From IMG/VR virus record IMGVR_UViG_2675903289_000010: DNA of 5,471 nucleotides; one strand, 5' to 3'. Below are positions 708-4,779 of this stretch, in pieces. Source of the stretch: a virus. Lineage: Duplodnaviria > Heunggongvirae > Uroviricota > Caudoviricetes. Within the stretch, counting starts at the first letter, position 1, and every line of letters starts with the position of its first letter. A program made the translations under genes and the position numbers. The notes below the pieces were generated by a model. It was not told the origin of the DNA and made no database searches. It saw only the letters and a list, made by a program, of their open reading frames with translations.

Positions 708-1410
708 TCAGCGACCAATCACCACAACCTGACCACCGTCCCCTTCGTCTGCCGTGCTGATCTCCTGAGATACCACACGTGACCCCACGCGCATTTCACC
801 ATACAGAACAGGCATAACATTGCCCTGGGCAACCATGTTATCCAGTGACGAGAAATACGTGTTCTGCTTACCGTTATCCGTTGTCTGTGTNNNNNNNNNN
901 NNNNNNNNNNNNNNNNNNNNNNNNNNNNNNNNNNNNNNNNNNNNNNNNNNNNCGGGGAGTTCTGGCTTTCGGTGCCAGCATCTGTGCAACACCGCCAAGC
1001 GTCATACTGGCACCGAGAGAAAACAGCAGATTACTCGCCATAATTCCTACCCCCGGCATCCATATAGCAACCGCCATAACAGCCGCCCCCAGCACCGCCT
1101 GAAACACACCGCCACTTTTAGCTCCCACCAGACGCGGTACTATGTGGATCACTGCACCATTTGCCAGCGGCTCATTAAGACGGGCAGACAATTCGGTTTC
1201 ACCTGCATCACGCCCGGCAATGCGCACCTGATACCAGCCGTCACTCAGTTTCTGACGAAACGCCGGGAGCTGTGTGGCCAGTGCCCGGATGGCTTCAGCC
1301 CCCGTTTTCACACGAAGGTCGATGCGGCGACCAAATCGTTGTAAATCCCCGTAAAGGCAGATGCGCGCCATGCCCGGTGACGCCAGAGGGAGTGTGTGCG
1401 TCGCTGCCAT
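708..1410 (-). CDS. I: Tail tip assembly protein I (N-terminal ubiquitin-like domain ending in a Gly-Gly motif); interrupted by an N run at 891-952
   Basis: ATG at complement 1408-1410, stop TGA at complement 708-710. Track ORFs 874..1410 and 708..998 together read MAATHTLPLASPGMARICLYGDLQRF...VIHIVPRLVGAKSGGVFQ...MLAPKARTP[N]TQTTDNGKQNTYFSSLDNMVAQGNVMPVLYGEMRVGSRVVSQEISTADEGDGGQVVVIGR, colinear with lambda gpI. The apparent frame change across the N run is an artefact of gap length. Confidence 0.88.
891..952. other. Run of 62 N inside gene I (assembly gap or masked bases)
   Basis: Literal N characters. Flanks read ...KARTPR and TQTTDNG..., which are only a few codons apart in lambda gpI as I recall it, so the true missing length is probably much shorter than 62 nt. 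Confidence 0.95.
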
Positions 1411-1767
1411 TTGTCGGTGTACCTCTCTCGTTTGCTCAGTTGTTCAGGAATATGGTGCAGCAGCCCGCCGTCACCGCAGTAAATGGCGGCATGATTCGGC
1501 ACCGATGAACCAAAACAGCACAGCAGCACATCGCCCGGCTGTGCCTCTGTCAGTGCGACACGGTAAAAACCCGTCACCTCCATATTGTCAAGATAGAGAT
1601 TCTGACCGTTACGCCACCAGTCATCCCCGCGATGAAAATCCGGCATCTCAATCCCTGCCAGATGATAAGCATCCCGGAACAGCGTGTAACAGTCCGTCAC
1701 CCCGTGCTCAAAGCGCCGCCCGGTGAGATGCGGCACACAGCGGAACTTGTGAATCGCCCCCCGGCAG
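1286..1767. repeat. Direct repeat copy A (~482 bp), about 93% identical to 1769-2250; spans K C-terminal region plus I 5' end
   Basis: Manual alignment of 1287-1767 with 1770-2250: both start cggatggcttc and end cggaacttgtgaatcgccccccggcag; roughly 35 mismatches including one divergent ~60-nt patch (1545-1605 vs 2027-2087). Confidence 0.85.
1308..1767 (-). pseudogene. K: K C-terminal fragment (NlpC/P60 domain portion), second divergent copy, truncated at the N at 1768; overlaps the I start by 103 nt as in lambda
   Basis: Track ORF 1308..1736 ends ...GVTDCYTLFRDAYHLAGIEMPDFHRGDDWW...NHAAIYCGDGGLLHHIPEQLSKRERYTDKWQRRTHSLWRHRAWRASAFTGIYNDLVAASTFV. Similarity continues to 1767, then the sequence jumps to I-like sequence after the N. 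Confidence 0.7.
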
Positions 1768-1768
1768 N
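1768..1768. other. Single N at the junction of the two ~482-bp repeat copies
   Basis: Literal N; left flank corresponds to K (equivalent to 2221-2247), right flank to I 5' region (equivalent to 1287 onward). Confidence 0.95.
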
Positions 1769-1894
1769 CCGGATGGCTTCGGCACCCGTTTTCACACGAA
1801 GGTCGATGCGGCGGCCAAATCGTTGCAAATCCCCGTAAAGGCAGATGCGTGCCATGCCCGGTGACGCCAGAGGGAGTGTGTGCGTCGCTGCCAT
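1769..1894 (-). pseudogene. I: I N-terminal fragment (first 42 codons) fused at N1768 to K-derived sequence in a different frame
   Basis: ATG at complement 1892-1894; track ORF 1697..1894 reads MAATHTLPLASPGMARICLYGDLQRFGRRIDLRVKTGAEAIR then X then out-of-frame K sequence. Confidence 0.7.
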
Positions 1895-2250
1895 TTGTCG
1901 GTATACCTCTCTCGTTTGCTCAGTTGTTCAGGAATATGGTGCAGCAGCTCGCCGTCACCACAGTAAATGGCGGCATGATTCGGCACCGATGAACCAAAAC
2001 AGCACAGCAGCACATCGCCCGGCTGCGCCGCTGACAACGGCACCTGATACAGCCCTGTGGCCTCCAGATTATCCAGATAGAGATTCTGACCGTGACGCCA
2101 CCAGTCATCCTCACGATGAAAATCCGGCATCTCAATCCCCGCCAGATGGTAAGCATCCCGGAACAGCGTGTAACAGTCCGTCACCCCGTGCTCAAAGCGC
2201 CGCCCGGTAAGATGTGGCACACAGCGGAACTTGTGAATCGCCCCCCGGCA
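1769..2250. repeat. Direct repeat copy B (~482 bp), partner of 1286-1767
   Basis: See copy A; differences are scattered and include synonymous changes, consistent with diverged alleles. Confidence 0.85.
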
Positions 2251-2535
2251 GACCAGCCACCACGGCAAATCACTCTGCACCTGCAGCCGCCGGTCAGCCT
2301 CACTCAGCCAGGGCAGACCACCGGGATGACTGTGGACCAGCGCCACAATCTCACCCTGCATTTGTGCCCGCAGCCAGTCCTCCGGAGCCATCCGGAACCG
2401 TTCCTCCGGCTCACCGGAGATATTCTCGCTGGGAAGATACCTGTCTCCCTCCGGCGTTCTTACCACGAAGCCACACGACTCCGCTGGCGCACATCGCCGG
2501 GCGTGCGCCAGAATCGCTGATTCTGTCTCTGTCAT
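1792..2535 (-). CDS. K: Tail tip assembly protein K, 247-codon ORF: N-terminal JAB/MPN (JAMM metalloprotease-like) domain plus C-terminal NlpC/P60 cysteine peptidase domain
   Basis: ATG at complement 2533-2535, 5 nt after the L stop (TAA ATCCC ATG); stop at complement 1792-1794. JAMM signature HSHPGGLPWLSEAD (H-x-H-x7-S-x2-D) and NlpC/P60-like Cys/His residues (VTDCYTLF, NHAAIY, LLHHIP) are visible in the translation. An internal in-frame ATG (complement 2389-2391, MAPEDW) would give a 199-aa product. Confidence 0.88.
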   Translation of the reverse strand: MTETESAILAHARRCAPAESCGFVVRTPEGDRYLPSENISGEPEERFRMAPEDWLRAQMQGEIVALVHSHPGGLPWLSEADRRLQVQSDLPWWLVCRGAIHKFRCVPHLTGRRFEHGVTDCYTLFRDAYHLAGIEMPDFHREDDWWRHGQNLYLDNLEATGLYQVPLSAAQPGDVLLCCFGSSVPNHAAIYCGDGELLHHIPEQLSKRERYTDKWQRRTHSLWRHRAWHASAFTGICNDLAAASTFV

Positions 2536-2540
2536 GGGAT

Positions 2541-3239
2541 TTACTGCGAAAGTTTGTTAATGGAAAGGAAGCCGCCAAAGTTGCCGACGTTATTGCGAAA
2601 CTTACAGCCACTCAGGCATTTGCTGCATTTATCCTTCGTGATGTCGGACGTTGGCTGGTCATATTCATCCGCGACCGCCGGACCGTGATAACCGCACTCA
2701 TCGCCGCGATAGGTCCAGGTGCAGGTGTTGGCCAGCATGATACGTCCCGGAAAAACAGCGCCATCTGTTTCCGTCGGCGTGGACAGTACAAAAGAGGCAC
2801 TCACCGCGCTCAGTTCGCTGCACTGCTCAATGCGCCAGCGGCTGATCACCTCCTGCTCCGGATCGGCGTCACTGTTTCCGTTGACGAAGTTCACCGCATC
2901 CAGAAAACGGGCGTAAACCTTACGCCGGACCACCGTTCCGCCGACCAGACTCTGTAGATCTTCCGCCATCCCGGTGACCATACCGTACAGGTTAGAAACC
3001 ATCAGCGTGGGGCGCGTACTGGTGCCTTTGCCATTCAGTTCAAAACCACTCCCCTGAATGGGATACGGCTGATACTGTCGCCCCTGCCAGGTGACCGGCT
3101 CACCTTTTTCGTTCTGCTCATTACAGAAAAAATAACGTTCTCCACCGACCTCTGTCAGATCGATTTCCCAGAGCACCACGCTGGCCGACTGCTCCGCACG
3201 GGTGCATTCATTCAGTGTTTCCTGCCGGATATCCTGCAT
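2541..3239 (-). CDS. L: Tail tip assembly protein L (232 aa) with C-terminal cysteine cluster (Fe-S binding in the gpL family)
   Basis: ATG at complement 3237-3239, stop TAA at complement 2541-2543. Translation MQDIRQETLNECTRAEQSASVVLWEIDLTEVGGERYFFCNEQNEKGEPVTWQGRQYQPYPIQGSGFELNGK...ANTCTWTYRGDECGYHGPAVADEYDQPTSDITKDKCSKCLSGCKFRNNVGNFGGFLSINKLSQ matches lambda gpL. Plus-strand ORF 2214..2957 is an antisense shadow. Confidence 0.92.
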   Translation of the reverse strand: MQDIRQETLNECTRAEQSASVVLWEIDLTEVGGERYFFCNEQNEKGEPVTWQGRQYQPYPIQGSGFELNGKGTSTRPTLMVSNLYGMVTGMAEDLQSLVGGTVVRRKVYARFLDAVNFVNGNSDADPEQEVISRWRIEQCSELSAVSASFVLSTPTETDGAVFPGRIMLANTCTWTYRGDECGYHGPAVADEYDQPTSDITKDKCSKCLSGCKFRNNVGNFGGFLSINKLSQ

Positions 3240-3307: not shown

Positions 3308-3315
3308 NNNNNNNN
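3308..3315. other. Run of 8 N at a rearrangement junction (M 3' fragment | K N-terminal fragment)
   Basis: Literal N characters; flanks belong to non-adjacent parts of the canonical gene order. Confidence 0.95.
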
Positions 3316-3516: not shown

Positions 3517-4215
3517 TTACTGAGAAAGTTTATTGATGGAAAGGAAACCGCCGAAATTACCGGTATTGTTGCGCAACTCACACCCGCGCATACACTTGCT
3601 GCATTTGTCCTTCCGGATATCCGTCGTTGGTTTGTCGAACTCGTCAGCCACTGCCCTGCCCGTGTAACCACACTCATCAGAACGGTAAGTCCACATACAG
3701 GTATTCGCCAGCATGATACGCCCCGGGAAAACCGCGCCATCCGTCTCCGTTGGTGTGGCCAGCACAAAAGAGGCACTGACCGCGCTCAGTTCGCTGCACT
3801 GCTCGATGCGCCAGCGGCTGATCACCTCCTGTTCCGGATCGGCGTCGCTGTTTCCGTTGACGAAGTTCACCGCATCCAGAAAACGGGCGTAAACCTTACG
3901 CCGGACCACCGTTCCGCCGACCAGACTCTGTAGATCTTCCGCCATCCCGGTGACCATACCGTACAGGTTAGAAACCATCAGCGTGGGGCGCGTACTGGTG
4001 CCTTTGCCATTCAGTTCAAAACCACTCCCCTGAATGGGATACGGCTGATACTGTCGCCCCTGCCAGGTGACCGGCTCACCTTTTTCGTTCTGCTCATTAC
4101 AGAAAAAATAACGTTCACCACCGACCTCTGTCAGATCGATTTCCCAGAGCACCACGCTGGCCGACTGCTCCGCACGGGTGCATTCATTCAGTGTTTCCTG
4201 CCGGATATCCTGCAT
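3517..4215 (-). CDS. L: Tail tip assembly protein L, second full-length copy with divergent C-terminal ~80 residues (cysteines conserved)
   Basis: ATG at complement 4213-4215, stop TAA at complement 3517-3519. Identical to copy 1 over the N-terminal ~150 residues; the C-terminus differs (LATPTETDGAVFPGRIMLANTCMWTYRSDECGYTGRAVADEFDKPTTDIRKDKCSKCMRGCELRNNTGNFGGFLSINKLSQ) but keeps all five Cys positions. Confidence 0.85.
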   Translation of the reverse strand: MQDIRQETLNECTRAEQSASVVLWEIDLTEVGGERYFFCNEQNEKGEPVTWQGRQYQPYPIQGSGFELNGKGTSTRPTLMVSNLYGMVTGMAEDLQSLVGGTVVRRKVYARFLDAVNFVNGNSDADPEQEVISRWRIEQCSELSAVSASFVLATPTETDGAVFPGRIMLANTCMWTYRSDECGYTGRAVADEFDKPTTDIRKDKCSKCMRGCELRNNTGNFGGFLSINKLSQ

Positions 4216-4259: not shown

Positions 4260-4270
4260 NNNNNNNNNNN
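4260..4270. other. Run of 11 N at a rearrangement junction (M 3' fragment | L internal sequence)
   Basis: Literal N characters. Confidence 0.95.
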
Positions 4271-4779
4271 GCCAGCATGATACGCCCCGGGAAAACCGCG
4301 CCATCCGTCTCCGTTGGTGTGGCCAGCACAAAAGAGGCACTGACCGCGCTCAGTTCGCTGCACTGCTCGATGCGCCAGCGGCTGATCACCTCCTGTTCCG
4401 GATCGGCGTCGCTGTTTCCGTTGACGAAGTTCACCGCATCCAGAAAACGGGCGTAAACCTTACGCCTGACCACCGTTCCGCCGACCAGACTCTGCAGGTC
4501 TTCCGCCATCCCGGTGACCATTCCGTGCAGGTTAGAAACCGTCAGTGTCGGACGGGCAGCACTGCCCTTGCCGTTCAGTTCAAATCCCGTCCCCTGAATG
4601 GGGTATGCCTGATACTGCCGCCCCTGCCAGGTAACCGGCTCACCTTTTTCGTTCTGCTCATTACAGAAAAAATAACGTTCACCACCGACCTCTGTCAGAT
4701 CGATTTCCCAGAGCACCACCTGGGCTGACTGAGTGAGGCGTGTCGTCTCATGATGTGTTTCCTGTGGAATATCCTGCAT
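4271..4779 (-). pseudogene. L: L N-terminal fragment (~169 codons), third copy with divergent N-terminal residues; 3' end lost at the N run
   Basis: ATG at complement 4777-4779. Translation MQDIPQETHHETTRLTQSAQVVLWEIDLTEVGGERYFFCNEQNEKGEPVTWQGRQYQAYPIQGTGFELNGKGSAARPTLTVSNLHGMVTGMAEDLQSL...; 4271-4470 is near-identical to 3708-3907, while 4530-4779 is divergent. Confidence 0.75.

Follow-up and report, generated by a model that had tools for sequence, protein, structure and literature searches.

K and I in the tail-tip cluster of a lambda-like Escherichia coli prophage: a two-peptidase protein beside a predicted ubiquitin-like partner

What does a phage tail-tip assembly protein that carries two peptidase domains act upon, and does the answer lie in the gene next to it? 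This question is raised by genes K and I in a DNA stretch of 5,471 nucleotides (nt) from the IMG/VR virus record IMGVR_UViG_2675903289_000010, hereafter the window, which is the tail-tip assembly cluster of a lambda-like Escherichia coli prophage, with K and I forming part of the gene order H-M-L-K-I-J. Our findings indicate that K combines an intact JAB/MPN+ zinc-peptidase domain with an intact NlpC/P60 cysteine-peptidase domain, the activity of both being predicted from sequence, and that I has three parts: a predicted beta-grasp domain at residues 14-97, a stretch that is hydrophobic and rich in glycine, and a plug domain at the C-terminus. We consider it rather probable that the JAB domain of K makes a cut in I, whose ubiquitin-like domain would serve as a chaperone or block that is later removed. 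This interpretation of the pair as ubiquitin-like, JAB and NlpC partners has been known since 2006 (PMC1779556), the presence of a JAMM motif in lambda K had been pointed out in 2003 (PMC300881), and the window genes are near-identical to those of lambda. What we add are refinements of annotation and interpretation, not new biology: the placement of a conserved glycine at residue 96 of I, statistics for the long starts of both genes, the likely origin of the 199-residue annotation of lambda K, and the recognition of a scaffold artefact. In the K-I pair, the best-studied of phages offers a ubiquitin-like domain and a JAMM peptidase in one of their simplest natural combinations, and the cutting of gpI by such an enzyme was predicted twenty years ago.

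Two peptidase domains in K

An original prediction made from the letters of the window alone had described K as a fusion of a JAB/MPN and an NlpC/P60 peptidase, and this description is borne out by profile matches, by the retention of catalytic residues and by a predicted fold of the JAMM1/Rpn11 type. A profile hidden Markov model search with the 247-residue K found PF14464 at 52.4 bits and PF00877 at 49.2 bits, above the curated cut-offs of 25 and 23 bits, respectively (that of PF06805, the family found in I, is 23.8 bits; the positions of all features are collected in Table 1). The JAMM motif E-x(n)-H-[ST]-H-x7-S-x2-D is complete in K (E19, H68-S69-H70, S78 and D81), and the second domain holds the motifs DCY (C121), NHAAIY (H187) and HH (199-200), where the assignment of C121, H187 and H199 as a triad rests on their position within the Pfam match. 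A search of 1.84 billion representative proteins returned 1697 relatives of K at E values up to 1e-10. In an alignment of K with 106 full-length relatives (107 sequences; identity 31-78%, median 38%) the JAMM residues are retained by 101 (E19), 103 (H68), 103 (H70), 95 (S78, with Thr in nine others) and 104 (D81) sequences, and the NlpC/P60 residues by 101 (C121), 102 (H187) and 102 (H199); both catalytic sets are kept in about 95% of the 106 distant relatives.

The predicted structure agrees with this picture for the N-terminal half. The AlphaFold2 model of K has a mean predicted local distance difference test (pLDDT) score of 73 and is best predicted over residues 1-40 (about 90), and its best Foldseek match is JAMM1 of P. 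furiosus (5ld9/5lda; E 3e-6, TM-score 0.63, target-normalised), followed by Rpn11, CSN5 and AMSH, with 5lda being the complex of JAMM1 with the ubiquitin-like protein SAMP2. The modelled N-terminal domain thus matches the MPN fold. Among the 50 best Foldseek matches listed for K, most are MPN/JAMM proteins and none is an NlpC/P60 protein, the C-terminal half having low pLDDT; because this half is weakly modelled, the papain-like fold is predicted from sequence evidence only. Searches of PDB sequences matched K alone to 2kks (E 4.5e-5), and the K-family profile to 2kks (2.9e-12) and JAMM1 (1.4e-10) as well as to the peptidoglycan endopeptidases Spr/MepS (3.4e-7) and CwlO (7.2e-6). The models of both K and I derive from shallow alignments of close enterobacterial relatives, and we therefore place only moderate confidence in them. 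No published peptidase assay of gpK was found in the literature searched. A role for the NlpC/P60 domain as a peptidoglycan hydrolase during infection was considered and rejected, since gpK has not been found in virions.

The ubiquitin-like domain of I and its pairing with K

Gene I of the window is interrupted by a run of 62 N and reads through as a protein of 213 residues when this run is filled with 1 nt, as the mapping onto a finished prophage indicates; its 152 readable residues are about 90% identical to lambda gpI (PDB 8iyk; E 1e-68). That the N-terminus of I would adopt a beta-grasp fold had been predicted from the letters, and both the PF06805 match over residues 14-97 and the structure prediction point the same way. 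The AlphaFold2 model places strands at residues 15-19 and 29-32, a helix at 37-56, a strand at 60-64, a second helix at 71-78 and a last strand at 87-92, and Foldseek against the PDB gives a ubiquitin-like beta-grasp protein for every one of the 50 best matches, headed by SAMP1 (3po0; TM-score 0.70, target-normalised, root-mean-square deviation 2.9 Å) and then MoaD, a MoaD-related protein and Urm1. The predicted fold of the domain is of the MoaD/SAMP type, and the outcome that would have undercut the original prediction, some fold other than beta-grasp, did not emerge.

The end of this domain bears directly on where a peptidase might cut. The original prediction had it as a segment of about 95 residues that closes on Gly-Gly; the segment does end in VPRLVGAKSGG immediately before the hydrophobic glycine-rich stretch, with the doublet lying at residues 100-101 and not at about 95. 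As a marker of the domain end the doublet is confined to the lambda-like phages, G101 being invariant and G100 nearly so among close relatives, with the doublet kept in 78 of 78 I proteins from the related loci. It does not align outside the lambda-like group, where the family-wide glycine is instead G96, kept in 39 of 39 diverse I homologues (two PDB sequences and distant marine viral contigs included) and situated four residues past the Pro of the last strand (I-V-P-x-x-x-G). From our own comparison we take the position of G96 to be that of the terminal glycine in MoaD and SAMP1.

Helices H1 and H2 of gpI, which correspond to the hydrophobic segment that follows, have been proposed to insert into the outer membrane. 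Lengths of I range over 211-223 residues (211, 213, 215 and 223) in loci L007-L086 owing to variation in this segment, and the motifs that flank it, FQxVLGAA and GGVAQMLAPK, are invariant among close relatives. One E. coli I protein in the databases (P0203, 247 residues) carries a tandem duplication of 37 residues within the ubiquitin-like domain (GRRIDL...WYQVR twice), probably another artefact of assembly or recombination.

The pairing of the two genes is conserved, as had been proposed, and well beyond the lambda group. I lies between K and J in the window, phage 434, lambda and E. coli prophages. A more distant set of 51 viral loci was found with the K homologue P0298, 36% identical to the window K, and the two genes adjoin or are fused in 43 of them: a K homologue is directly followed by I in 38 (25 with JAB and NlpC/P60, 13 with JAB only), and JAB is fused to I in five. 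The remaining eight comprise five loci that lack an I frame in the DNA examined and three that lack a callable K open reading frame. The JAMM motif and its Glu are intact in 46 of 48 distant K homologues. Since the 13 JAB-only homologues still adjoin I, the JAB and ubiquitin-like pair persists when NlpC/P60 is lost, and the pair is thus the constant core from which the NlpC/P60 domain can be dropped. The JAB-only form, 111-117 residues long and directly before I, occurs in the metagenomic viral contigs L118-L123, L128-L130, L133, L135 and L136. In L124-L127 and L131, single proteins of about 330 residues have JAB fused to the N-terminus of I, which puts the enzyme and its presumed cleavage site in one chain. 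No E1-like or E2-like gene is present in the tail-tip cluster, where the neighbours are H, M, L and J, and I, for all its predicted ThiS/MoaD/SAMP-like fold, is neither a sulfur carrier nor a conjugated modifier of the usual kind.

Processing of I during tail-tip maturation

Studies of related particles provide the setting in which the pair would work. Lambda tail assembly requires gpK (PMC12617516), which mass spectrometry did not detect in virions and which virion structures do not show. A trimer of gpI, resolved over residues 134/135-223 or 101-223, plugs the tip lumen and holds the tape-measure protein by its C-terminus, and residues 1-100 of gpI are seen in no lambda virion or tail structure (PMC11101478, PMC10721106, PMC12617516). 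The N-terminal domain of gpI is an unexplained missing piece in this recent cryo-electron microscopy (cryo-EM), for which one paper guesses at a cell-wall enzyme (PMC11101478). In the F-pyocin, a preprint reports a proteolytic checkpoint whose protease is called unknown: stalled tips still contain the N-terminus of PA0640, the counterpart of gpI, mature particles have lost it, and PA0639, which is homologous to gpK, is essential (bioRxiv 10.64898/2026.02.24.707460). The cryo-EM work (2023-2025) and the F-pyocin preprint (2026) fit a removal of the N-terminal domain of I. The comparative-genomics work that the original prediction had drawn on is that of Iyer, Burroughs and Aravind 2006 (PMC1779556), and it does include the step in question, the JAB domain being predicted to release the ubiquitin-like domain at its C-terminal glycine.

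In the mechanism that we favor, the JAB domain of K would cut I just past the ubiquitin-like domain during tail-tip maturation. With G96 conserved family-wide and G100-G101 confined to lambda-like phages, the predicted cut falls either at the G96-A97 bond or after the G100-G101 doublet. The freed ubiquitin-like part would be discarded, and the remainder (from about residue 97-102 onward) would stay within the tip and, as a trimeric plug of its lumen, hold the tape-measure C-terminus. The ubiquitin-like domain would then represent a removable chaperone or steric block, its removal serving as an assembly checkpoint. A further cut, in I or in some other tail protein, may fall to the NlpC/P60 domain. 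The report that gpI is resolved 'from position 101 onward' (PMC11101478) would fit the G96-A97 site slightly better.

Several points weigh against this mechanism. Cleavage of I by K is a prediction, and PA0640 expressed alone in E. coli loses its N-terminus to host proteases (bioRxiv 10.64898/2026.02.24.707460). Absent density can reflect disorder rather than cleavage, and the cut site is uncertain, with the family-wide glycine at 96 and residue 101 reported as resolved (PMC11101478). Confidence in the model of I is no more than moderate (pLDDT 60 overall and about 75-79 within the domain, based on a shallow alignment of 15 sequences), the NlpC/P60 half of the K model is weakly predicted (pLDDT 52-59 at residues 181-220), and no K-I pair is intact on a single contig segment of the window.

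A different account would leave I uncut by K: its ubiquitin-like domain would stay disordered or be trimmed by the host, and K would serve as a chaperone or cleave some other protein, for example H to H* and HC. The host trimming of recombinant PA0640 agrees with this, as do the protease that cleaves gpH, which is unknown (PMC12617516), the second peptidase domain of K, which is without an assigned substrate, and the mass spectrometry of lambda virions, which gave one gpI peptide at a position not given. Strict conservation of the JAMM motif together with the glycine that ends the ubiquitin-like domain (39 of 39) would be hard to explain in this way, and the JAB-I fusions and JAB-only neighbours hard to explain without an enzyme-substrate relation between JAB and the ubiquitin-like domain; we regard this account as unlikely. 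Cleavage of gpH occurs late in tail assembly, and K acts early, at the tip.

Hor et al. (bioRxiv 10.1101/2023.09.04.556158) have put forward, as speculation, an anti-defence role, and the JAB fold of K does resemble deubiquitinases. Here K would free the central tail fibre J of a host ubiquitin-like protein, for instance one that the Bil system has attached, and would not process I. Common to the Bil system and to K and I is that a ubiquitin-like protein, an enzyme of the deubiquitinase type and the tail tip bearing the central tail fibre are all involved. Bil is host-encoded, however, conjugates its ubiquitin-like protein via E1 and E2 and blocks assembly, whereas K and I are phage-encoded, have no E1 or E2 and promote assembly. 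JAB adjoins, or is fused to, the phage's own ubiquitin-like domain in those 43 distant loci, and this constant proximity argues for a substrate inside the phage; moreover, PA0639 is needed for F-pyocin tip assembly without such a defence being involved, and gpK is described as required for assembly of the lambda tail (PMC12617516). We judge the anti-defence role to be quite improbable, though it is compatible with processing of I and the two do not exclude each other. Even less probable, in our view, is a role for the NlpC/P60 domain of K as a transpeptidase that would join the freed ubiquitin-like domain, through its C-terminal glycine, to J, L or H, either transiently or permanently. If true, this would amount to a phage-encoded ubiquitin-like conjugation without E1 or E2 that controls tail assembly.

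Cleavage of I by the JAB domain, the mechanism that we prefer, can be set beside several known systems. The lambda pair is alike in its order L-K-I-J, its 103-nt overlap and its identical JAMM motif and NlpC/P60 residues, with few residue differences between re-sequenced lambda K and the window K. The two pairs differ in the length of I (223 residues in lambda and 213 in the window, where the hydrophobic linker is 10 residues shorter), in the annotated length of K (199 residues in the lambda reference, 247 in the window) and in the fragmented scaffold on which the window copies lie. The TAPI/TAPK system of Iyer et al. (PMC1779556) is the same system as that of the window: the I protein begins with a ThiS/MoaD-like ubiquitin-like domain that ends in a conserved glycine, placed here at G96, and continues through a glycine-rich linker into its last domain, and TAPK, like K, joins JAB to NlpC/P60. 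The fusion and single-domain-loss variants recur in our distant loci. That study stressed NlpC-only versions, whereas in our loci it is NlpC/P60 that is lost and JAB that stays.

F-pyocin PA0640 is like gpI in being a tip plug of which only the C-terminal part is found in the particle, the N-terminus being gone before the tip joins the tube, and PA0639, like gpK, is absent from particles. The window I matches PDB 25vf chain 9, a putative phage tail assembly protein of 200 residues, at E 4.8e-16, and this chain is presumably PA0640. The F-pyocin differs in being a tailocin and not a phage, in its low sequence identity and in the end of the domain (GSKQSG in 25vf chain 9, GAKSGG in the window). 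The archaeal JAMM1-SAMP2 and the Rpn11-ubiquitin pairs include the best fold matches of the K N-terminal domain (JAMM1 and Rpn11), those of the I N-terminal domain being SAMP1 and MoaD, and a cut after the C-terminal glycine of a beta-grasp domain would be the same chemistry. In contrast to these pairs, the phage cluster has no E1 or E2, and hence no sign of conjugation, its predicted substrate is a linear fusion and not an isopeptide bond, and its JAB domain is fused to a papain-like peptidase. Tying the cryo-EM and F-pyocin observations to the 2006 prediction makes the cleavage question directly and cheaply testable.

Starts of K and I, their overlap and the scaffold

The long start of K at MTETES, which the original prediction had placed 5 nt past the L stop, is well supported by conservation, codon-position statistics and re-sequenced lambda alike. 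K has 247 residues from an ATG 4-5 nt past the L stop in 79 of 80 related viral loci, a set returned by a narrow K profile that yielded close relatives only (K 93-98% identical) and was used for polymorphism, not diversity; the same length is already annotated in phage 434 and in PGAP-annotated E. coli genomes. Among 77 unique sequences from this set, variable sites in K codons 1-48 fall on codon positions 1, 2 and 3 in 12, 9 and 34 of 48 cases each (p = 2e-8), the same pattern as in the rest of K. The distant homologues begin at or before residue 1 in 76 of 106 cases and at residue 49 in one, and residues 1-48 (CAPAESCGFVVR being an example peptide) hold Glu19 and, in the model, a helix and two strands of the MPN core. 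Because no Shine-Dalgarno sequence precedes the K ATG, its translation is likely coupled to that of L.

The alternative is that the true product is the 199-residue protein starting at M49, with the 48 upstream codons untranslated. It draws on the GGAGG placed 11 nt before the M49 ATG, where the upstream ATG lacks a Shine-Dalgarno sequence, and on the annotation of 199 residues in both lambda RefSeq and re-sequenced lambda imm434. The coding pattern of variation in codons 1-48, the catalytic Glu19 and MPN core elements modelled there with pLDDT of about 90, and the starts of the distant homologues all oppose it, as does the origin of the lambda annotation itself, and we hold it to be very unlikely, though a short form from M49 possibly is made alongside the long K. 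As stated in the original prediction, lambda K is indeed annotated at 199 residues, and this K overlaps I by 103 nt. The 1982 lambda reference (J02459/NC_001416) reads GGAGGCTATTTCC, where independently sequenced lambda stocks read GGAGGCGTATTTCC; the reference is without one G (GGAGGC-TATTTCC) at about 1265-1270 of locus L004, lambda coordinate about 14266. Direct reading showed the extra G in lambda imm434 and in the K-12 CV601 lambda record (compare L005 and L006), and other re-sequenced lambda-type records (DE3 and two further lambda) match over 302 nt against 301 in the reference. With the extra G, the lambda frame is open from the ATG at 14133 and encodes a 247-residue protein starting MTQTES. 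The 199-residue annotation likely arose because this single missing base broke the K frame in the 1982 reference, and the re-sequenced lambda imm434 record still carries it despite its open frame. Many laboratory strains show nine differences from the original lambda sequence, which are unlisted (Feiss et al. 2022, PMC9119081). K should be annotated at 247 residues, lambda included.

The overlap of K and I, which had been given as 103 nt at 1308-1410 in different frames, has that length, position and phase; the K frame found there is, however, that of a 5'-truncated second copy, and the full K (1792-2535) overlaps only a 42-codon fragment of I (1769-1894). With M1 taken as the start of I, the overlap measures 103 nt in 79 of 80 related loci as well as in lambda and the window. 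Among the 77 unique sequences, variation at third codon positions of K affects 0 of 13 sites opposite I codons 1-13 and 1 of 20 opposite I codons 14-33, compared with 86 of 165 such sites in the body of the gene (p = 1.7e-4 and 2.7e-5, respectively), and 12 of the 15 variable sites of the overlap fall on the third codon position of I. This pattern places the I frame under selection from M1 onward, and the overlap is truly dual-coding, with both frames used. In distant relatives the overlap is only 1-11 nt, which makes the long overlap a feature of the lambda group. K residues 226-247 (1792-1860, minus strand) lie beyond the NlpC/P60 domain and wholly within the I frame and are poorly conserved across the family; they look like an overprinted extension and not a functional part of K, these last ~22 residues being tolerated read-through. 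This tail of K takes amino-acid changes wherever the third codon position of I varies. Databases give three starts for I, at M1 (213-223 residues), at M14 (200 residues, in many PGAP records) and at a GTG at V34 (180 residues), the last of which leaves a 4-nt overlap with K and deprives the ubiquitin-like domain of its first strands. M1, which the polymorphism supports, should be annotated as the start of I; the 200-residue PGAP start drops the first 13 residues.

On its minus strand the window runs from the last part of H through M, L, K and I into the first part of J, with Pfam matches for M (PF05939), L (PF05100), K (PF14464 and PF00877) and I (PF06805). Its DNA shares 95-97% identity with phage 434, with further lambdoid phages and with prophages of E. 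coli. The window finds a match in 4473 of 5426 complete E. coli genomes, at a median of three places per genome. Four runs of N (891-952, 1768, 3308-3315 and 4260-4270) divide the window into five segments, which we mapped onto a finished E. coli prophage (L003, from NZ_CP065615). The mapped segments overlap one another by 0.5-0.9 kb of homologous sequence, so that the 5471 nt of the window correspond to only about 3.36 kb of locus and K, I and L appear two or three times; complete E. coli genomes likewise match the whole window over only about 3.36 kb. Given that the overlapping parts are 79-99% identical, the segments derive from different paralogous prophages and were chained by the scaffolder. 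The window is a scaffold of five paralogous contigs from a mis-joined draft assembly, with extra gene copies, and gene arrangements read across its N-run joints are an artefact. The truncated K copy comes from a different paralogous prophage and is ended by the gap at 1768, and the interval 1308-2535, which the original prediction had assigned to a single K, merges this copy with the complete gene.

Extra copies of K, I and L would also result if the genome itself carried a true tandem duplication, and these copies differ by 1-21%, hence are not simple read-level duplicates. Yet every joint carries a run of N and interrupts genes in mid-frame, the segments overlap exactly in register on the finished prophage, and complete E. 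coli genomes match over only ~3.36 kb at a median of three loci each. With all segments mapping in register onto one locus, we rejected this extremely improbable explanation. Scaffolds such as this one can yield false gene arrangements.

Table 1. Coordinates of the features discussed, in positions of the 5,471-nt window
Feature	Position	Strand	Remarks
Gene I, C-terminal 60 codons and stop codon; plug region	708..890	-	open reading frame; virion-retained in lambda
Scaffold gap of 62 N inside gene I	891..952	.	stands for about 1 nt; flanks at L003 1190 and 1192
Gene I, N-terminal 152 codons; ubiquitin-like domain and hydrophobic linker	953..1410	-	open reading frame
Hydrophobic glycine-rich segment of I, residues 102-147	970..1107	-	helices H1 and H2 of lambda gpI (PMC11101478)
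Gly100-Gly101 of I	1108..1113	-
Ubiquitin-like beta-grasp domain of I (predicted), residues 14-97	1120..1371	-	PF06805, E 4.5e-24, 85.1 bits
Family-wide conserved G96 of I	1123-1125	-
K/I overlap, 103 nt, truncated K copy and I	1308..1410	-	two minus-strand frames, dual-coding
Second K copy, 5'-truncated (C-terminal part)	1308..1767	-	repeat D2, ~92% identity to full K; PF00877 match
Single-N scaffold joint	1768..1768	.	joins two contigs overlapping by about 483 nt of paralogous sequence
Fragment of second I copy, first 42 codons	1769..1894	-	overlaps full K at 1792-1894; ends at the 1768 gap
Gene K, full length, 247 residues; tail-tip assembly protein starting MTETES	1792..2535	-	open reading frame; Pfam matches
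NlpC/P60 domain (MEROPS C40) of K, residues 111-224	1864..2205	-	PF00877, E 5.8e-13, full profile length
Putative NlpC/P60 catalytic residues of K	C121 2173-2175; H187 1975-1977; H199 1939-1941	-
JAB/MPN+ domain of K, residues 4-98	2242..2526	-	PF14464, E 5.8e-14
JAMM zinc motif HSHPGGLPWLSEAD, K residues 68-81	2293..2334	-
Internal ATG, M49 of K (MAPEDW)	2389..2391	-	annotated start of the 199-residue lambda K; GGAGG 11 nt upstream
Catalytic Glu19 of K (predicted), in AESCGF	2479-2481	-
L stop TAA (2541-2543) and 5-nt spacer ATCCC before K ATG	2536..2543	-	no Shine-Dalgarno sequence
Gene L, 232 residues; upstream neighbour of K	2541..3239	-	PF05100, E 1e-100; repeats D1, D3
Further full or partial L copies	3517-4215; 4271-4779	-	repeats D1, D3
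Window segment	1-890		L003 301-1190
Window segment	953-1767		L003 1192-2006
Window segment	1769-3307		L003 1524-3013
Window segment	3316-4259		L003 2094-3013
Window segment	4271-5471		L003 2485-3663

The two full copies of L are 96% identical over most of their length and only 79% over the last ~300 nt (2541-2836 and 3517-3812, minus strand), a part that, judging from lambda gpL, encodes the cysteine-rich iron-sulfur region. Such divergence between the copies points to mosaic recombination within L among prophages.

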